A stretch of 60,985 bases of DNA from a virus (taxonomy: Duplodnaviria > Caudoviricetes), in the IMG/VR virus record IMGVR_UViG_3300048996_000173, positions 1-60,985 of that record; one strand, 5' to 3'. The notes beneath the pieces are model-generated. The model did no database searches and was not told the DNA's origin. It saw nothing but the letters and a program-made list of their open reading frames with translations. Made by a program: the position numbers and the translations under genes. Below, piece after piece: positions 8,434-51,616 of this stretch (positions are counted from its first letter, which is position 1; every line of letters starts with the position of its first letter).

Positions 8434-9576
8434 CTAGGCTACCTGGTCGGTGCGGACCAGGGTCAGCGACGCGTCGTCGGACTGGTCCGGGGCGAGCTGG
8501 ATATTGGTGACGCGGCACCACATGAACTCGTCCGACCACTCGTCGTCCAGCTGTAGCGGGACCTCGTCGCCGGGGCGGATGGAAGTGATGGGCGCGTATG
8601 AGCTGTCCCGCAGGGTGATCCCGCTGACCTGGCGGCCGGCCACCAGCGCCTGCTTGAGGAGTACGGCGGCGCGGCGGTCCGCCTGCGCGATCAGCTTCAG
8701 GTCCTTGCGCTCCTCGAGCAGTACGCGCCGAATGCGGCCGGTCGGCTGGGTCGCGTAGCCGCGGATCATCGTACGGCCGTTACCGGCTCCGAGGACCATG
8801 ACGTCCGTGACGGGCCCATTCGTGGGCGGCTCGACGCTCGGCTGGACGAGGATGTTCTCCCCCACCACGAAGCGGAGGTGGTCCAGGCGGGCTCCCAGGG
8901 TCGGGTAGCCGCGCTCCAGCTTGTGTCGCAGCGTGTCGCCGTCCCACCAGTGCACCTCCCGGTAGTCGAACGGGGTGGTCTCCGCCAGGTCCTGCACCAC
9001 GGGGCCGAGGTCGTGCGTCTCGTACCAGTTCAGCTTGAACGGGCCGGCTTCCAGGCCGATCAGGCCTGACTCGGTATCGAACTCGACCTGGTCCAGCTTG
9101 TAGCCGATCTTGACCGGAGACGAGCAGGCGCCGATCTCGAGCCCCACGTCGCCGCCGGGCTTGGCCTGCAGCCAGTTGTAGACGTGCTCGTGGATGGCCA
9201 GCGGGTCGGTCTCGACGAAGAAGGTCGAGTCCGTGCCGGTACCGTCGCCGTACGGCTGCTTGAACGGGATGCCGGACAGTCCGATGCAGCGCAGGCTCTT
9301 CGTCTGGCCGGTGTGCGGCGCGGTCTCGAGGATGCCGCCGCCGCGGATGTCACCGGAGGAGTCCTCTGCCCAGATCGCCGTACCCCACTCTTCGAAGAGC
9401 GGCCGGCCGTCAGCTGCTTTCATGCCGGCGACGCCCGCCGAGACCTCCGCGGTGAGCTCGTTGGTCGCGGTCAGGTTGTCCATGATGGAGACGTTCGTCA
9501 GCGGCAGATCGGTGTGCAGGAACTCTCCCCACGCCGTACCGCTGTACCGCTGGAGCAGGTAGCGCCAGCCGGCCAT
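8434..9576 (-). CDS. Minor tail protein (baseplate hub/Tal-like)
   Basis: Position, WRYLLQR start and IRPGDEV...CRVTNI end typical of siphophage hub proteins. Confidence 0.75.
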   Translation of the reverse strand: MAGWRYLLQRYSGTAWGEFLHTDLPLTNVSIMDNLTATNELTAEVSAGVAGMKAADGRPLFEEWGTAIWAEDSSGDIRGGGILETAPHTGQTKSLRCIGLSGIPFKQPYGDGTGTDSTFFVETDPLAIHEHVYNWLQAKPGGDVGLEIGACSSPVKIGYKLDQVEFDTESGLIGLEAGPFKLNWYETHDLGPVVQDLAETTPFDYREVHWWDGDTLRHKLERGYPTLGARLDHLRFVVGENILVQPSVEPPTNGPVTDVMVLGAGNGRTMIRGYATQPTGRIRRVLLEERKDLKLIAQADRRAAVLLKQALVAGRQVSGITLRDSSYAPITSIRPGDEVPLQLDDEWSDEFMWCRVTNIQLAPDQSDDASLTLVRTDQVA

Positions 9577-10601
9577 CAGGAGGCCTCTTCGACAAACCTC
9601 AGCCGGATGTGGTAGTTGGAGTTGCCGTCGACCACGAGGTCGCCCTGGCTGGCCGCGTCGGTGGGTACGGCCTGGATCTGGAACGCCTGCGCCGTCCCGC
9701 GCTGGGCAGCCGGGACGATGACGCGCTCAGCCATGAGGACCGGATACCGGCCGGCCACTTGCTGGCTGTACTTGAAGCCACCGGTGCCCCAGCCGCCCGT
9801 CTGGCACCACACGCGGAAGGTGGCGTTGGTGTCGTCGCTGGCGGTATCCTTCATGCCCTGGAGCCAGGCGTCGATGTAGACGACGGTCGCCCAGTCCGGG
9901 ATCGCGATGTTCGAGTTACTGTTGTCCGGAAAGTATTCGAAGGTGACCTGGTTGGCGGTGCTCAGCGTGTCGTTCGAGGCGACAGCGTTCCACTCCCGGA
10001 TGTTCTCCCGGGGGTTCACAACGCGACGCAGGTCGACGATCTGGGCGCCGCCGGTGATGGTGGTCCAGTTGCTGGCCAGGTCCAGGCGCGAGAGGGCGTA
10101 GCAGGGGTACGGCGGCGGGGAGGGGAGGTCCTCGACCCGGGTGGTGCCCGCCGGGACGTTCCGGATGATGAACGGCCGGACGTACTGGTAGGTCAGGGCC
10201 GCGGTCGGCGTCGCCGGCTTGTTCGCGTCGGTCAGCCAGGCATGACCGGCAGTGGTGTACAGCGGGTCGCCGACAGTCACGCAGACGAGGTGAGACTGGG
10301 CGACGCCAGGGTTGGTCGCCGGGAAGCCGCCCGGGAGGTCGACAGACGCATTGGTCAGGTCCATCGCGGCCTGGTTCTCGACGATGTACGCCTGGCCGGA
10401 GTTGGAGACGTACCGGTTCTCGATCACGCCTCCGCCGGCCGAGATGCGCACGCCAGCGCCCGGAGCGGCCAGAGGGATGACCTTCAGGTCGCCGACGTTG
10501 ATGACGCCCGACTGCTTGACGGCGGCGCGGTTGCCCAGGCGCTGCAGCGAGGCCGGCGTCCGGGCGCCATCGATAGCCAGCGCGGCTGCGGTGAACGGCA
10601 C
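9576..10601 (-). CDS. Minor tail protein
   Basis: GDLKVIPLAAPGAGVRI...IVDLR pattern of actinophage baseplate proteins. Confidence 0.75.
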   Translation of the reverse strand: MPFTAAALAIDGARTPASLQRLGNRAAVKQSGVINVGDLKVIPLAAPGAGVRISAGGGVIENRYVSNSGQAYIVENQAAMDLTNASVDLPGGFPATNPGVAQSHLVCVTVGDPLYTTAGHAWLTDANKPATPTAALTYQYVRPFIIRNVPAGTTRVEDLPSPPPYPCYALSRLDLASNWTTITGGAQIVDLRRVVNPRENIREWNAVASNDTLSTANQVTFEYFPDNSNSNIAIPDWATVVYIDAWLQGMKDTASDDTNATFRVWCQTGGWGTGGFKYSQQVAGRYPVLMAERVIVPAAQRGTAQAFQIQAVPTDAASQGDLVVDGNSNYHIRLRFVEEAS

Positions 10602-35832: not shown

Positions 35833-35854
35833 GCTCCCCTTCCCCACTTCCCCT

Positions 35855-35892
35855 AAAACGAGGTCCCGGCCACAACGGCGGGGCCTCGTTTT
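35855..35892 (+). terminator. Terminator after the primase gene
   Basis: AAAACGAGGTCCCG...CGGGGCCTCGTTTT. Confidence 0.7.
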
Positions 35893-35908
35893 GTCGTTTT
35901 AGGGCGGC

Positions 35909-36220
35909 GTGACTCTCGAGTGACCCTCGAGTGACCCAACTTCGGCACTTGGGTCACCGCTCTGACCTGCGGTTTTAGCCAATAGTGACCCAAGTGACCC
36001 AAATCGAAGGTCAGCTTCCTCTATGGAGCATCTAGAGCTCTTCTAGAGACTCTTCCAGACTCCCCTAAGGGGACTTTTGAATATTTGGGTCACTTGGGTC
36101 ACTAGGCATAATTCAGTAGTAGAAATAAGGGTCTGACCTGGGCTTACTTCGGAGAGTTACAGTGACCCACCCTTCGTGTTGGGTCACTTTGAGCGTGAAG
36201 TTGGGTCACTCGAGAGTCAC
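35909..36220. repeat. Nested palindromic GTGACCC array, probable replication origin
   Basis: Ten GTGACCC/GGGTCAC copies arranged around a more AT-rich core, next to the primase-helicase gene. Confidence 0.7.
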
Positions 36221-36408
36221 CTGGTTGAAAACCGAAGCAAGTAAGGGGTCCGAGACATATGACCCGTACATAACTGGAGCTGCTATGCAGACCGGTCACG
36301 CGTGCGCGCGTAGCAGGGGACCCCCTCCCCCGTCAAGGGGTAAGAGGCAGGAAGTTTGGCACATCGGTGTCATAGGTAGGTTGGCACCAATGTGCCACAG
36401 GTAGGGGG

Positions 36409-36700
36409 TTGACAGGGGTGAGCATGGTGGTGTAGTACGCATGCGTGCAGCACAGGTCATAGAGTGCACTACACACAGTGAGCACCATGTACACAAAGTA
36501 GTTGTCCATATAGTGAGATAGGCTATTGACAGGTGGGGGAATCTCAGGCAGAGTTGTCCTCATCACCACACAGCAGCACCGCAGGGCAGGCAGGGAGCAC
36601 CGCTACTACCCCACTAGGGGAAGGGGCTCACACCATGGCCCAGCAGCAGGAAACAGGGGGTTGACAGAACCCCCGCAGTATGGCAATGTTCTCCACAGCA
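36409..36700 (+). promoter_or_regulatory. Tandem SigA-type early promoters
   Basis: TTGACA at 36409, 36526 and 36661 with -10-like hexamers at about 17 bp spacing. Confidence 0.65.
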
Positions 36701-36712
36701 CCACACAAAAAC

Positions 36713-37170
36713 TTCACAGCGGAGGGCACGGAACAAGAGCCCCGAACGGAACACGGCAGGCAATACGGGCTGCGGCAGTTCATCCAGGTCGGCGGTTTGC
36801 AGCAGTCAGGCACATGCGAGGACACCACAACGCTCGTAAGTCTCAAGACTTATCCCCTCCGCTGTGAACACCACTGGGCAGCTGATCCCGAAAGGGCAAA
36901 GGCCCGAACCCGAAACTTGACAAGAGAATGTACGCCTCCTGAGGGCAGAAACTCAGGGCGCTCCCGCTAGCTAAGCCGATTAAGGCGACCCAGGCGAGGA
37001 CCGCGCCGGAGATGAATGCAATCCGGGTAACTAACTATGATCACGAACAAGCCCTGCCAGAGCAGGGCTGACCCTTGAATTGCCCCAGCCAGGATGCGCC
37101 ACTCCGTGAAACCCGGAAATCGACGCCTCCTGACTCGGGTCGAGCTTCACCCACAGGGGTGAGGTTGGAT
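36713..37170 (+). ncRNA. Structured non-coding leader or sRNA region
   Basis: 14-bp closing stem (36713-36726 with 36855-36868) plus many hairpins, and no credible ORF. Confidence 0.45.
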
Positions 37171-37186
37171 CTGAGAGGAATGCGCC

Positions 37187-46515: not shown

Positions 46516-46774
46516 CAAGGAACTGCTCGCCGAGCTGGAGAGGGCGGAGAAGAAGGCTCTTGGCAACGACAAGCCCTGTAGACTGTGTGTGGCGCTGATG
46601 GACCTGGAACCGGGTGCGATCGATGCGGTCGAAGCCGTGCTCCAGAAGCGCCACCCGAATCGGGACAGGTACCTTCTCGGGGAGAGAAAGCTCCATCCCA
46701 TCCTGAATGCCGCGGGAATCAAGGTGACCCAGGTTGACATTCAGGTCCACCGAGAGGAAGGCCACGGAGCGTGA
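46502..46774 (+). CDS. Small Zn-binding protein
   Basis: CRLC...HREEGH, typical of genes found next to phage metallophosphoesterases. Confidence 0.65.
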   Translation: MGKRSKELLAELERAEKKALGNDKPCRLCVALMDLEPGAIDAVEAVLQKRHPNRDRYLLGERKLHPILNAAGIKVTQVDIQVHREEGHGA

Positions 46775-48081
46775 CCACCGACACCAAGAAGCTGATCGCG
46801 GACCTGAATGACGCCGTCCGCGCCAAGATCCAGACCCCGCCGGCGCCCATCGCAGCCCAGCGAGCCCCGAAGGACTGGAAGCCGGGCGTCAAGTACGACG
46901 GCCGCGGCCAGGTCTCGGAGATCACCACGGTAGCCATCCCGGGCGACCAGCTGGCCGCTGAGGACTATCAGCGCGTGGTCGAGGAAATGGGTGTCACGGT
47001 TCCGGCCGGCCTGGTACTCGTGCTGGCCGAGGCGAGCTTCGACCCCTTCGCCTGGACGCGCGAGGAGCCCTTCTGGATCGACGAGAAGGGACACCAGCGC
47101 AAGACCCCGGCGACCACTCAGGCTGGCTGGCGCTACCGCTTCAAGACCGCTTCAGCAGCTCTCGTGGCAGCCTCCGACGAGGACCTCGAGAAGCTTCAGG
47201 CCGCCGCTCGCCGAGCGGTCCGGGCGCGACCCCGTACGACTCCGTTCGACGGTGTCACGCAGGTCATCGTGCTCGGGGACATCCAGGCTGGCAAGGTCGA
47301 TCGCCGCGGCGGATCCGCCGAGCTCCTGGTCCGCCTGGAGCATGCGCTGGCCGAGATCCTCCGTCACGTGAAGCGGACCAAGCCGAACGAGATCCTGCTG
47401 ATCGACGGCGGCGACGGCATGGAGATGTTCGAGTCCTCGCCTGGCGCCGACCGGACCAACGACCTGTCGCAGACCGAGCAGATCCGCCTGTGGCGCCGCG
47501 TCCTGATGTCGTGGGTCCGCGAGCTGGCCAAGGTCGGCGTGACCGTGAAGGTCATCTCGGTGCCGTCCAACCACTGCTCGGTGCGCCGTGGGAAGCAGAA
47601 CATGGGCACGCCCGCCGACGACTACGGCATCGAGGTCCTGACGCAGGTGGCCGACATCTGCGCCGAGAACCCCGACGCGTACGGCCACGTCGAGTTCTAC
47701 TCACCCGGCGAGCACGAGGAAGCCCTGGCGATCACCCTGGCCGGCGGAAAGACCCTCGGCGTCGCACACGGCCACCAGAAGACCCGGCCCGAGGCCATTC
47801 CGGCCTACCTGGCCGGCCAGGCTGCCGGCCGGACCCCGATCGGCGACTGCGACATCGCAGTCTTCGGCCACTGGCACAACCTCCGGGTGCAGACCTGGGG
47901 CGACGACCGGTGGTTCTTCATCGCGCCGACCATGGACTCCGGCTCGAGCTGGTTCGCCAACAACACCGGCACCGAGTCCGCTCCCGGTGTGCTCACCTTC
48001 GTCGTCGACAGCCGCGGCTGGCGCGACATGCACGTCGCCTGGGCCCGCGAGGGCATCGACTACGAAACCCTGGAGGCCTGA
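46771..48081 (+). CDS. Calcineurin-like metallophosphoesterase (Mre11/SbcD-like)
   Basis: GDIQ, GD, SNH, AHGH and GHWH motifs. Confidence 0.85.
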   Translation: MTTDTKKLIADLNDAVRAKIQTPPAPIAAQRAPKDWKPGVKYDGRGQVSEITTVAIPGDQLAAEDYQRVVEEMGVTVPAGLVLVLAEASFDPFAWTREEPFWIDEKGHQRKTPATTQAGWRYRFKTASAALVAASDEDLEKLQAAARRAVRARPRTTPFDGVTQVIVLGDIQAGKVDRRGGSAELLVRLEHALAEILRHVKRTKPNEILLIDGGDGMEMFESSPGADRTNDLSQTEQIRLWRRVLMSWVRELAKVGVTVKVISVPSNHCSVRRGKQNMGTPADDYGIEVLTQVADICAENPDAYGHVEFYSPGEHEEALAITLAGGKTLGVAHGHQKTRPEAIPAYLAGQAAGRTPIGDCDIAVFGHWHNLRVQTWGDDRWFFIAPTMDSGSSWFANNTGTESAPGVLTFVVDSRGWRDMHVAWAREGIDYETLEA

Positions 48082-48082
48082 C

Positions 48083-48244
48083 GTGACCAGCCACTCGTCG
48101 CACCGCCGCTGGAAGGGTTGTCAGCTGTGCAAGCCCCACAAGAACCGCGACCGAGGTCAAGCTGAGCGGCAACCCTTCGCCGCCCTGCGCAAGCTCGGCA
48201 AGCGCCGGCGCGTCTCCCGCCGAGAGATCGGAGACGACCAGTGA
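48083..48244 (+). CDS. Small basic CxxCxxH protein
   Basis: GGAGG RBS and GCQLCKPHK. Confidence 0.6.
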   Translation: MTSHSSHRRWKGCQLCKPHKNRDRGQAERQPFAALRKLGKRRRVSRREIGDDQ

Positions 48245-48414
48245 CCGCCGAGGAACCGACCCTGGCCGAGCTGGAGGAAGCGATCACCCACGTGGCCGCG
48301 ACCGCCGGCCGGTACAGCGACGTCGACCCGAAGAAGGCCCGGCTGCACGAGGAGCTCAACCACCTGCTCGAGGACCGGGACCGCCTCTTGACGGAGCGAC
48401 CGGCGATCGGCTAA
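48241..48414 (+). CDS. Small helical hypothetical protein
   Basis: GTGA overlap. Translation TLAELEEAITH...LNHLLEDR. Confidence 0.6.
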   Translation: MTAEEPTLAELEEAITHVAATAGRYSDVDPKKARLHEELNHLLEDRDRLLTERPAIG

Positions 48415-48417
48415 GCT
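48388..48417 (+). promoter_or_regulatory. Promoter for the ncRNA
   Basis: TTGACG-18-TAAGCT. Confidence 0.7.
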
Positions 48418-48601
48418 CGGTACTGCCGAACAGCGCTTCTAGAAGTGGAAGACCTCGGTGCTCTTCCTGAGACGCAAGGGTTGAGCGGTGGCGGTGCAGG
48501 ATCGGAGTCGGGAAACCTGCACGCGGTCACCTGATGAACTGATCAGGACCAGATGGGCCGGTACCCTTGCAGGGTAGTCGGAGACAGGGTCTAGATCGGC
48601 A

Positions 48602-48672
48602 ATCGGTGCAGCATGGCGGAGAGCGGTCACCCGCGGAGGGTGGCCACGCGGGTTCGAGTCCCGTCACCGATG
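48602..48672 (+). tRNA. tRNA-like element with non-canonical anticodon arm
   Basis: ATCGGTG/CACCGAT acceptor, GCGGG-TTCGAGT-CCCGT T-arm, and an 8-bp arm with a GCGGA loop. Confidence 0.5.
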
Positions 48673-48707
48673 CGAAGTTCGGCGGCTTAGTCCGTCGGGC
48701 CTTAAAT

Positions 48708-48801
48708 TCGCCATTAGCTCAGTCCGGTAGAGCACCGCTTGGCCAGCCCCGCAGTGTCGGGGGTAACGCGGAGGTCCTAGGTTCAAATCCTGGATGGCGA
48801 A
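48708..48801 (+). tRNA. tRNA-like element (Thr-GGU-like) with ~20-nt insertion in the anticodon loop
   Basis: TCGCCAT/ATGGCGA acceptor, GCTC/GAGC D-arm, AGGTC variable loop and CTAGG-TTCAAAT-CCTGG T-arm. Confidence 0.65.
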
Positions 48802-49054
48802 CGAGGTAACGAGGGATCCCGAAACCCCATCCCGCAGTGTGGAAGAGAGGGTAAGAGGGTGAGGTTCGACCTCGGTGCGGCGACCGAAAACGCCCTTCTG
48901 GTCCACGACAGGACTCGCCTTGGCGGCGCGTATCCGTCTACGTGACCCGAGCGCACTCGGGCATTCAGGCCCCGCCGGTATGCATGCTCCCCACGGTTCG
49001 ACCGTGGAACTTGGAAGCAACCGGTGGGGTCTGTCTCATTCTGCGGACAGTCTA

Positions 49055-49083
49055 TTGACCCAATCGGCAGCAGGCTGTAGGTT
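49055..49083 (+). promoter_or_regulatory. Promoter for the RNA ligase operon
   Basis: TTGACC-17-TAGGTT. Confidence 0.65.
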
Positions 49084-49119
49084 TTGAGCATCAGAACTTG
49101 CAACCACCTGGAGGTTTCC

Positions 49120-50301
49120 ATGCATCTGTATGACCTGGTCGACGTCAACGAGACGACCTGGCTCTACGAGAACGGCTGGCTGAACGAGACCGAGCACCCG
49201 ACCGAGCCGCTGCGCATCCTGAACTACTCCAAGCGCGCGCAGACTGCCGTGGAGCCGTGGTCGGTCGAGTCGCTGCACCACTGCCGCGGCCTGATCTACA
49301 ACACCACCAACGGTGAGATCGTCGCCCGGCCGTTCCCGAAGTTCTGGAACTACGGCCAGGCCGGCGCCCCGATGATACCCCTGGATGCCCTTGTCCAGGT
49401 GACCGACAAGGCCGATGGCTCGCTCGGCATCATGTATCGCCGACCGAGCGACGGCGAACTGGCCATCGCCACGCGGGGCTCGTTCCTGTCGGAGCAGGCC
49501 GTCCACGCTACGCAGACCCTGTATCTGAAGCACAACGACTTCGAGCCTAATCCCGACTGGACGATGCTGTTCGAGATCGTCTACCCGGAGAACCGGATCG
49601 TGCTCGACTACGGCGCTCGCGACGACGTGGTGCTGCTGGGTGGCGTCTTGACCCACTACAAGGACCTGGTGATCCTGGGCCCGAACGGCTTTCCGGAGTG
49701 GAAAGGCCCGAAGACCGAGATCATCTACGAGGGCAACTTCGACGGCGCGCTGGCGCTGAAGATGGACCGGCCGAACTCCGAGGGCTACGTGATCCGCCGG
49801 ATGATCGACGGCGGCATGGTGAAGCTCAAGCAGGAGGACTACAAGGCCCTACACGCCGCGCTCTTCGGGCTGAACCAGCGCCGGATCTACGAGATCGTCA
49901 TGGCTGGCCGCGGCCTCGGCCAGCCGGGCCAGTACGAAGGCGTGCCCGAGTTCGACACCCTGCTGGCCCAGCTGCCCGACGAGTTCCACGACTGGGCGCG
50001 CAACCAGCGGCACCAGATCCTCGAGACGATCCGGAAGCGCGCGGATGACATCTTCGAGGAGTACGGCGCGATCGTCGAAGGCTGGAGCGTGATCTACGAG
50101 GTAGACGACCAGCGGAGCCGGAAGAAGGCATTCGCGGCCGAGGTCGCCAAGGTCAAGACGCCGTATGCGTGGGCGCTGTTCGCCATCTTCAACGGCGCCG
50201 GCCGCGACGACATCGAGGACCAGCTGCTGCACCACCTGGACAAGGACAAGGAGATCGACGCCAAGGTCCGTCCGGTCAACCAGCCGGTCGAGGAGGTCTG
50301 A
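49120..50301 (+). CDS. T4 Rnl1-like RNA ligase
   Basis: CRGLI, RPFPKFWN, KADGSLG, TRGSF, FEIVYPENRIV, EGYV and VKLK. Confidence 0.92.
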   Translation: MHLYDLVDVNETTWLYENGWLNETEHPTEPLRILNYSKRAQTAVEPWSVESLHHCRGLIYNTTNGEIVARPFPKFWNYGQAGAPMIPLDALVQVTDKADGSLGIMYRRPSDGELAIATRGSFLSEQAVHATQTLYLKHNDFEPNPDWTMLFEIVYPENRIVLDYGARDDVVLLGGVLTHYKDLVILGPNGFPEWKGPKTEIIYEGNFDGALALKMDRPNSEGYVIRRMIDGGMVKLKQEDYKALHAALFGLNQRRIYEIVMAGRGLGQPGQYEGVPEFDTLLAQLPDEFHDWARNQRHQILETIRKRADDIFEEYGAIVEGWSVIYEVDDQRSRKKAFAAEVAKVKTPYAWALFAIFNGAGRDDIEDQLLHHLDKDKEIDAKVRPVNQPVEEV

Positions 50302-50302
50302 C

Positions 50303-50473
50303 GTGGCCTGGGGTCGGAAGAAGAAGCAGGACATCAAGGGCGGCAAGGGCAAGCCGAAGGAGCCGTTCGTCCCGTGCGGGAAGCCGATCCACCGGCTCGC
50401 CAAGCGGGAGAAGAACGGCTCGGTGACCACCCCGATCTGCCAGAAGCAACGTGGACACTTTGGAGGTTGCTGA
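50303..50473 (+). CDS. Small basic Cys/His protein
   Basis: GGAGG RBS and CG...C...GHFGGC. Confidence 0.55.
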   Translation: MAWGRKKKQDIKGGKGKPKEPFVPCGKPIHRLAKREKNGSVTTPICQKQRGHFGGC

Positions 50474-50474
50474 C

Positions 50475-50663
50475 GTGAGCAAACAGATCAGAATCCACGA
50501 CGACGGTGACGAGATCGTCTGGATCGACGTCGACGGAGAGCAGTTGCACGAGCTGAACCACGACCTCGATGGCTGGGATGGCATGAAGCGGGGGATCGAC
50601 CTGGTCGAGAAGCTCGCCAAGGCCTTCGGCGTCGAGGTCAGCTACGAGCAGGACATCGTCTGA
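50475..50663 (+). CDS. Small acidic hypothetical protein
   Basis: GGAGG RBS. Confidence 0.65.
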   Translation: MSKQIRIHDDGDEIVWIDVDGEQLHELNHDLDGWDGMKRGIDLVEKLAKAFGVEVSYEQDIV

Positions 50664-51616
50664 TGTCCACACTCGTTGTAACGAGAGGCCTGCCCGGATC
50701 CGGCAAGACGACGTACGCCAGAGAGTGGGTGGCCACCTGGATCGAGACGCGGTCGCGCGTGAACCGGGACGACCTGCGCAAGATGCTCCACAGCGGCCCG
50801 AACGGCTACTCGCGCGAGCTCGAGAACGCGATCACGGCCGCCCAGGAGGCGCAGGTCACCGCGCTGCTGAAGGCTGGTCGCGATGTCATCGTCGACGACA
50901 TGAACCTCCGCCAGCAGTACGCGCGCCGGTGGGCCAAGATCGCCGACCTAGCCGGCGCCGAATTCGACGTCGTCGACCTGACCAACATCCCGGTCGAGGA
51001 GTGCATCCGCCGCGACGCCGCCCGTCTGCCGGAGGAGCGCGTCGGAGCGCGATTCATCACCGAACAGCACGTCCGCTACCTGGCCGGCAAGACGCACCCG
51101 CTTCCCTGGCCGACCAACGACTACGGCGTCGTCCCCGAGCCGTACGTGCCGCCCGGCACCGGCAAACAGGCGATCATCGTCGACCTCGACGGGACGGTCG
51201 CTCTGCTGAACGGTCGCAGCCCGTACGACGTCACCACGGTGAGCAGGGACCTGCCCAACGCACCGGTGATCCGGATCGCGCGGGACATGATGGGCATCGC
51301 TGACGAGTACGGCGACACCCTGCACATCCTCTTCACCAGCGGCCGGAGTGAGCTCGCCCGCGAGGACACGGTGGGCTGGCTGGCGGAGCACTTCTTCGGC
51401 GGTTCGGGCTATGCGTTCGAGCGCGGATGGGCCCGCCTGTTCATGCGGCCGGAGGGCGACGGCCGGCGCGACTCCGAGCTCAAGCTCGAGATCTTCAACG
51501 AACACATCCGCAACGAGTACGACGTCGTGCTCGCGCTCGACGACCGGAACCAGGTCGTTGACTTGTGGCGCTCGCTGGGACTAACGTGCTTGCAGGTTGC
51601 GCCGGGCGACTTCTGA
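50663..51616 (+). CDS. pseT: Polynucleotide kinase / 3'-phosphatase (T4 PseT-like)
   Basis: GLPGSGKTT and RDDLR in the kinase domain. DLDGT, SGR and DDRNQVV in the HAD domain. Confidence 0.93.
   Translation: MSTLVVTRGLPGSGKTTYAREWVATWIETRSRVNRDDLRKMLHSGPNGYSRELENAITAAQEAQVTALLKAGRDVIVDDMNLRQQYARRWAKIADLAGAEFDVVDLTNIPVEECIRRDAARLPEERVGARFITEQHVRYLAGKTHPLPWPTNDYGVVPEPYVPPGTGKQAIIVDLDGTVALLNGRSPYDVTTVSRDLPNAPVIRIARDMMGIADEYGDTLHILFTSGRSELAREDTVGWLAEHFFGGSGYAFERGWARLFMRPEGDGRRDSELKLEIFNEHIRNEYDVVLALDDRNQVVDLWRSLGLTCLQVAPGDF

Follow-up and report, generated by a model that had tools for sequence, protein, structure and literature searches.

The DNA analysed here, an IMG/VR virus record taken in full (60,985 nt; the window in what follows), has a CheckV completeness of 100% and a G+C content of 66.5%. 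A GC3-based gene call places the structural genes in the left half on the minus strand and the early or replication genes in the right half on the plus strand. The virus is a phage of high-GC bacteria, and the closest deposited phages, whose hosts are Streptomyces and Arthrobacter, match it at 40-45% identity in single proteins only. Canonical tRNA genes are absent from the phage: ARAGORN with default settings reported one aberrant gene, and model R1, which was built from element #2 described below and its homologue in L015, gave one match in the window at E<=1.

On the plus strand, an exonuclease-like gene (46771..48081; PHROG 284 'exonuclease', 2.4e-54; Pfam Metallophos below the cut-off) and a 57-codon ORF lie upstream of a non-coding stretch of 705 nt (48415..49119), which contains two tRNA-like elements, here called element #1 and element #2. 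Coding-signal tests showed that no frame of this stretch reaches a third-position GC of ~0.9, the level of the flanking genes; the GC3-based call places no gene within it, and its MFE z-score is -2.69 against 20 shuffles. The region of element #2 is directly upstream of a gene for an Rnl1-type RNA ligase (49120..50301, + strand; Pfam RNA_lig_T4_1, E 6.2e-10; PHROG 562, E 2.8e-52), which is followed, after a 70-codon ORF, by a gene for a polynucleotide kinase-phosphatase (Pnkp; 50663..51616, + strand; Pfam HAD_PNKP, 1.9e-44, and AAA_33, a P-loop kinase, 1.5e-19; PHROG 505, 1.3e-86). A possible ligase promoter (TTGACC-17 nt-TAGGTT, 49055..49083, + strand) was read by eye, and a consensus scan of 48100-49300 returned neither promoter-like nor terminator sites. 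The biggest gap of the genome without a high-GC3 ORF in a crude gene call, 1,354 nt in length, is at 35833-37186.

Element #1 (48602..48673, + strand) was called by ARAGORN as tRNA-Pro(cgg) with a score of 105. Its acceptor, anticodon and T stems are well formed, its D arm is weak, position 33 is a G and CGA follows the element; it gave no match to the Rfam tRNA model at E<=10, and tRNA-Sec reached only 14.7 bits.

A complete tRNA body with an elongated anticodon arm

Element #2 (48708..48801, + strand) combines a full cloverleaf body with an elongated anticodon arm. A preliminary description of this DNA, made from its letters, had recognized canonical acceptor, D and T arms at this position, and all three are indeed found, namely a 7-bp acceptor stem TCGCCAT/ATGGCGA (48708-48714 / 48794-48800), a D arm GCTC-AGTCCGGTA-GAGC and a T arm CTAGG-TTCAAAT-CCTGG. 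The variable region, AGGTC, is 5 nt long, the discriminator is A at 48801, and the letters that follow are CGA, not CCA. By inspection, U8, A14, G18-G19, G15/C48, G53-T54-T55-C56 and A58 are all in place. In E-value mode, the element matches the Rfam tRNA family RF00005 over model positions 1-71 of 71 with 50.4 bits, above the gathering score of 29, and an E of 1e-9 that refers to 801 nt x 4227 families, so the match is far beyond chance. The canonical anticodon arrangement, a 5-bp stem with a 7-nt loop that has U33 and a purine at 37, is missing from the element.

In place of this arrangement, the stem strands CCGC (48735-48738) and GCGG (48768-48771) enclose 29 nt, TTGGCCAGCCCCGCAGTGTCGGGGGTAAC, where RF00005 has 9, just as the preliminary description had counted. 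From reading of the sequence and folding of the arm alone, the elongated arm (48735..48771, + strand) consists of this proximal stem, an asymmetric 8/5 internal loop (UUGGCCAG, 48739-46, opposite GUAAC, 48763-67), an inner hairpin stem that had been noticed before and is read here as CCCCG/CGGGG (48747-48751 / 48758-48762), and a distal loop CAGUGU (48752-57). The arm folded by itself retains the 4 bp of the proximal stem and the distal helix. Its MFE is no better than that of shuffles (z 0.06), and the same holds for thermodynamic folding of the whole element (z -0.51), in whose MFE fold the proximal stem is in a shifted register. The earlier statement that removal of 21 nt would leave the loop TTGGTAA needs correction, as 8 nt then remain between the 4-bp stems (TTGGTAAC, that is TTGGTAA plus an extra C); removal of 22 nt gives TTGTAAC, the loop of the tRNA-Tyr (GUA) that ARAGORN proposes.

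Default ARAGORN did not report element #2, and an Rfam scan of the whole window in gathering mode gave 0 matches despite the 50.4 bits that the element scores in E-value mode; the speed filters of Rfam lose tRNAs bearing large anticodon-loop inserts. Because both default ARAGORN and the gathering mode of Rfam missed element #2, such genes are probably under-counted in phage genomes.

The preliminary description had also pointed to a segment of the insert that recurs downstream, and the 10-mer CCCGCAGTGT does occur exactly twice in the 60,985 nt, at 48748-48757 and 48831-48840. By reading, the second copy (48831..48840, + strand) lies within the loop and 3' strand of a small variable hairpin in the downstream RNA. 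With up to 1 mismatch allowed, 6 matches were counted in the window against 6.59 expected; repeated 10-mers number 3 in the 705-nt region, where shuffles average 0.36 and 3.3% of 300 shuffles reach 3; and 3 of the 10 positions of the second copy differ in a contig of run X2. A function of CCCGCAGTGT as a motif is thus unsupported, given near-chance counts, only mild enrichment and divergence in the run X2 relative. The CCGCAG within both copies is complementary to CUGCGG at 49041-49046.

Conservation of the elongated arm

Searching metagenome contigs with the ligase protein yielded 12 loci, among them L014, L015 and L016, whose ligases share 51%, 47% and 46% identity, respectively, with that of the window; the ligase of L227, a locus retrieved by a pattern search described below, shares 41%. 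In L015, positions 131-219 match the Rfam tRNA model with 47.9 bits and have 27 nt where the model has 11. Alignment revealed that the arm of L015 is built as that of the window: its proximal stem has 4 bp, the strands of its internal loop have 8 and 5 nt, and its GC-type distal stem has 5 bp. The 4th proximal pair is C-G in the window and U-A in L015, and the fifth distal pair, seen by eye and masked by the alignment, is G-C in the window and C-G in L015. With the structure given, standard pairs fill 49 of 49 pair cells of window and L015, and both sides have changed in 8 of 25 pairs; the acceptor stem accounts for 5 of these changes, the T stem for 2 and the proximal anticodon stem for 1. 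Only 1 of 500 shuffles equals these pairing and covariation values, and all controls with slid 3' partners pair at <=50%. This covariation comes from two sequences, window and L015, since L015 is the sole homologue with the same arm. The sequences of the internal loop and the cap diverge (CAGUGU in the window, a CUCG-type tetraloop in L015), and therefore the helices are the conserved part. An unconserved insert had been named beforehand as a sign of a decaying pseudo-tRNA; the architecture of the insert is kept in L015.

A tRNA body with the 4-bp/8/5/5-bp arm upstream of an Rnl1-type ligase was found in the window and L015 only. Across 100 sources (633,571 nt), model R1 scored 111 bits on element #2 of the window and 96 bits on L015, both by construction, and the next match had 57 bits. 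Among 79 viral ligase loci (L026-L105, a set of 80 from which L044 was excluded as repeating the contig of L002), R1 detected no extended-arm element, and 10 of the 79 had tRNA-type matches at E<=0.01. Neither a tRNA nor a non-coding gap is found at the ligase in L002, L003 or the Arthrobacter phage Seahorse locus. By blastn against 50,697 phage records, the 705-nt region had no match, and the matches of 46771-51616 were confined to the ligase and kinase genes. Pattern scans of viral contigs returned 0 matches to the exact body or arm, 1 unrelated match (L106) and otherwise only L227, and the architecture is absent among the 121 genome-contig matches listed for a loose pattern, the majority of which are tRNA-Ser-like genes of class II and the 3' ends of tmRNAs.

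Contigs of relatives from two sequencing runs bear on the same region. A 907-nt contig from run X2 aligns from 48780 rightwards at ~88%, and another 308 nt of this contig have no alignment at >=80%; because the alignment starts at 48780, the 5' two thirds of element #2 may be different in this relative. In run X1, which may be the source sample, a second contig (5,090 nt, at lower depth) matches on both flanks, but 1,590 different letters replace 1,128 nt at 48065-49194, and since it swaps this segment, a co-occurring relative has, to judge by its contig, another insert, of greater length, between its exonuclease and ligase genes. No joint across 48739-48767 was listed for the parts that the contigs of these runs cover.

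Arrays of tRNA-shaped elements upstream of RNA ligase genes

Arrays of tRNAs and tRNA-like elements are present directly upstream of the ligase gene in L014, L015 and L016. Local alignments of the flanking non-coding DNA beat 200 of 200 shuffles for both L015 and L016 and 196 of 200 for L014, and a pattern search with a conserved hairpin retrieved a fifth cassette, L227. The alignments, the pattern search and alifold together delimit a downstream non-coding RNA segment at 48802..49046 (+ strand) in the window, with counterparts at L014:1057-1222, L015:220-385, L016:417-565 and L227:4510-4683 (-). This conserved RNA, which has no Rfam family, lies between the last tRNA or tRNA-like element and the ligase gene and ends in a hairpin of 12-13 bp; in the window the hairpin has 13 bp (48966-48978 / 49021-49033) and the conserved flanks GCAUUCAG and UCUCAU. 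RNAalifold modelling suggests that the 5' and 3' ends of the conserved RNA pair with each other.

In all five cassettes (window, L014, L015, L016 and L227), a tRNA or tRNA-like element is located 5' of the conserved RNA. It abuts this RNA in L014, L015, L016 and L227, and the alignment of the window has extra letters in between. The letters after the element are CGA in 4 of the 5 cassettes and CCA in L227. The window and L015 have an extended-arm mimic as this element, whereas it is a short-arm aberrant form in L016, tRNA-Lys(CUU)-like in L014 and a canonical tRNA-Lys(CUU) in L227. What the cassettes have in common is the tRNA shape, not the anticodon; and as L016 has a different, short arm and L014 and L227 have tRNA-Lys or tRNA-Lys-like genes, the long arm itself may be dispensable.

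The relatives carry tRNAs for Asn(GUU), Lys(CUU), Met and Trp. Genes of the tRNA-Lys(CUU) type were observed at L014:985-1056, L016:195-266 and L227:4684-4757 (-). The copies of L014 and L016 have odd T loops, score 43 and 45.7 bits with Rfam and are uncalled by ARAGORN; that of L227 is canonical (68.5 bits) with CCA encoded. Two mini-tmRNA elements, L014:696-777 and L039:638-718, match the Rfam tmRNA model with 44.2 and 55.4 bits and have 12 nt where the model has 304, and are thus the tRNA-like domain only. Both are within tRNA arrays upstream of phage Rnl1-type ligases, and a G3:U70 pair was seen by eye in the L014 copy.

Insert-bearing tRNA-like genes in other genomes

A pattern scan found insert-bearing tRNA-like genes in 9 unrelated viral contigs. 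Enlarged anticodon arms are present, in contigs of 41-58% GC, at L005:11696-11797, L006:1889-1993 (-), L008:10205-10305 (-), L011:134-222 and L013:4463-4558, several of these genes lying in ordinary tRNA arrays; ARAGORN -i places 'introns' in them at non-canonical positions. An extra mini-hairpin follows the D arm in L007, L009, L010 and L012. According to ARAGORN, two phage tRNAs of L008 have four-base anticodons (9528-9602 (-), ttga; 9761-9838 (-), cgaa). A genome contig labelled Chitinophagales (L177:5027-5089 (-)) has a tRNA-like gene with a GCCGA/TCGGC hairpin in the anticodon loop.

Discussion

In this study, the tRNA body of element #2, its insert, the conservation of that insert with compensatory changes and its genomic linkage were directly observed. 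In our preferred explanation, which we hold with about even confidence, the element is a conserved tRNA-like module that does not decode, and the phage array of tRNAs and non-coding RNAs to which it belongs is tied to RNA repair. The preliminary description had offered an intron and a structural module of a larger RNA among its readings; the intron is not supported, and the module is the best fit, as a conserved array of tRNAs or tRNA-like elements together with a conserved RNA is found upstream of the ligase in five cassettes. Element #2 would then be a selectively maintained tRNA-shaped RNA gene with no role in decoding, in which a rod (4-bp stem, 8/5 internal loop, 5-bp GC stem and variable cap) replaces the 5-bp stem and 7-nt loop, and it would be one unit of an array, located upstream of Rnl1 and Pnkp, in which tRNAs and tRNA mimics are combined with a conserved non-coding RNA. 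It is most likely a non-decoding tRNA mimic rather than an intron-bearing tRNA, and its role is probably that of an RNase P/Z processing handle, a tRNA mimic, or both.

We infer the transcription, processing, stability and any partner of element #2 along the following lines. The array would be transcribed from the plus strand, host RNase P would recognise the intact top half of the element at its 5' end, and RNase Z would cut at the 3' end, because CCA is unencoded and CGA follows the discriminator; the RNase Z cut would at the same time give the downstream non-coding RNA its 5' end. The freed molecule of ~94 nt would gain CCA and persist as a stable tRNA mimic, which could occupy proteins that bind the tRNA body and could not enter decoding.

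The insert had been proposed to be a short protein-spliced intron. On that reading a hairpin of 20-22 nt would be excised and the halves healed and sealed by Pnkp and Rnl1 into a decoding tRNA, which would be Tyr-GUA according to ARAGORN and Ser-GGA or Ala-GGC in other registers. Pnkp and Rnl1 are enzyme types that complete tRNA splicing of the eukaryal type, and their genes adjoin element #2; in addition, the insert forms an extended helix on the anticodon arm that resembles the anticodon-intron helix by which the arm of pre-tRNAs is extended, so that the element shares with archaeal and eukaryal pre-tRNAs an anticodon-loop insertion, an extended helix and a normal body, with Pnkp/Rnl1-type genes nearby. 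ARAGORN with introns allowed, a check that had been suggested beforehand, does call an intron-bearing tRNA in the window (tRNA-Tyr(gta), 22-nt intron, score 109.6); however, the canonical loop is obtained only with a product anticodon stem of 4 bp and an intron at the non-canonical position 33/34 instead of 37/38, and the variable region of element #2 has 5 nt, whereas bacterial tRNA-Tyr normally has a long variable arm. The call also fails to carry over to L015, where identity and position both shift, to tRNA-Ala(cgc) with G33 and a 16-nt intron at position 38. When all contiguous deletions leaving a 7-nt loop were enumerated, 4 of 16 registers in the window gave a loop with U33 and R37 (three anticodons in all), and 0 of 16 did so in L015, so excision does not give a canonical loop that is conserved in homologues. 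Inspection of the sequence and the folded arm revealed no bulge-helix-bulge motif, the arm folding into a capped helix with an internal loop and lacking the two 3-nt bulges, placed on opposing strands and separated by 4 bp, that such a motif requires, and the splicing endonuclease domain PF01974 (EndA/Sen) had 0 matches in the 60,985-nt phage record and positive controls in 4 archaeal genomes. Since the registers, the motif, the EndA search of the phage record and L015 are all against it, we regard splicing to a decoding tRNA as very improbable. A group I intron was rejected, as the insert of 20-22 nt is far too short and no intron family appeared at E<=10 in the Rfam scan.

Alternatively, element #2 might be a decaying or neutral pseudo-tRNA, that is, the remnant of a phage tRNA (possibly from the tRNA-Lys lineage of the relatives) that suffered a hairpin insertion in its anticodon loop and persists as a functionless relic of a shrinking array. 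The phage indeed has no canonical tRNA, whereas its relatives have real ones; the neighbouring element #1 is aberrant too, the arm of its counterpart at this position in L016 is defective in another way, the run X2 contig aligns only from 48780 rightwards, and the run X1 contig replaces 48065-49194. However, neutral decay would break pairs, so it counts against a relic that 25 of 25 helix pairs are intact in both window and L015 despite 8 double-sided changes and diverged loops, and the same odd arm geometry occurs in two phages whose ligases are just 47% identical; we consider decay to be unlikely. It is somewhat less probable still that the element serves as a sponge, sensor or decoy directed at tRNA-binding defence proteins of the host, for example anticodon nucleases, working with the repair enzymes either by titrating the nuclease or by being cut instead of host tRNA. 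The Lys(CUU) and Asn(GUU) isoacceptors are common nuclease targets, and both are encoded in the same array of the relatives, in which several mimics have disabled decoding parts. Moreover, element #2 is directly upstream of Rnl1 and Pnkp, the pair of enzymes that in T4 reverses cleavage of tRNA-Lys by PrrC (PMC3014915). On the other hand, the anticodon loop is what known anticodon nucleases read, PrrC being an example (PMC3014915), and element #2 offers no mimic of a 7-nt loop. The cap is also unconserved between the window (CAGUGU) and L015 (CUCG-type), and the literature searched gave no precedent for such a decoy.

The conserved, non-decoding module that we prefer may be compared with several known RNAs. 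YrlA RNAs, which sit in rsr-yrlA-rtcB RNA-repair operons, similarly join tRNA-like D, T and acceptor parts to a long non-decoding helix with an RNA ligase gene adjacent, and differ in being circularly permuted relative to tRNA and in binding Ro, while element #2 has normal tRNA topology; the ligase is RtcB there and of the Rnl1 type here, and the phage is without TROVE. Ro/TROVE proteins with a tRNA-like partner in RNA repair are mentioned in a jumbo phage review (PMC7824862). As a candidate family for the locus, YrlA (RF02553) was rejected with 20.7 bits against a gathering score of 69 and an E of 0.12. Its match spans 48630-48758 with a 50-nt insert and runs from the T arm of element #1 into the D arm of element #2; because it bridges the two elements and there is no TROVE gene (PF05731 had 0 matches in the phage record, with positive controls in Deinococcus and Bacteroides), it is regarded as an artefact of tandem tRNA-like genes. 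An attP core derived from a host tRNA gene was likewise rejected, as the whole record has 0 matches to the integrase families PF00589 and PF00239.

In T4, the tRNA cluster is not known to be adjacent to pnk and rnlA. Its RNAC and RNAD are small stable RNAs of unknown role transcribed from the tRNA region, and Pnk and Rnl1 of T4 repair tRNA-Lys cut by PrrC (PMC3014915, PMC9697503); like RNAC and RNAD, element #2 would be a phage-encoded small RNA of a tRNA cluster. The tRNA-like domain of tmRNA and the mascRNA of MALAT1 (PMC11693755) are also tRNA-shaped modules lacking a decoding arm that are recognised by RNase P/Z and define RNA ends; unlike that of tmRNA, the D arm of element #2 is canonical, and its processing is a prediction. 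With counter-defence phage tRNAs the element shares its location in a phage tRNA array. According to PMC10264068, in which a term search gave no mention of decoys or tRNA-like RNAs, changes in the anticodon loop let phage tRNAs escape anticodon nucleases; such tRNAs still decode, in contrast to element #2, whose anticodon loop is unusable. A 2026 preprint deals with bacterial tRNA mimics of three unrelated families. Full-text literature searches gave no description of an element of this kind.

Extending the module to the arrays as a whole, phages of high-GC bacteria might encode a set of purpose-built tRNA mimics, co-transcribed and coupled to their Rnl1-Pnkp repair cassette, which would include the extended-arm RNA, the mini-tmRNA tRNA-like domains and the tRNA-Lys-like bodies with odd T loops. 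This proposal is a speculation with a small chance of being right, as is its boldest form, in which the internal loop is cut by a nuclease and resealed: the extended-arm RNA would be a pre-tRNA-like substrate that a host tRNA-directed nuclease cuts and that the phage Pnkp and Rnl1 reseal.

Among anti-phage defences, tRNA-targeting nucleases form a major class, and phages are known to counter them with tRNA arrays together with Rnl1 and Pnkp. The cassette described here adds that some arrays keep the tRNA body under selection in elements that are unable to decode. If these elements are processing handles, they would show that host tRNA enzymes mature phage non-coding RNAs, and if they are mimics or decoys, they would represent a new RNA-based counter-defence. 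The boldest form, if true, would amount to a viral counterpart, in the bacterial world, of protein-catalysed tRNA splicing, or to a cleavage sensor that couples nuclease attack to repair.
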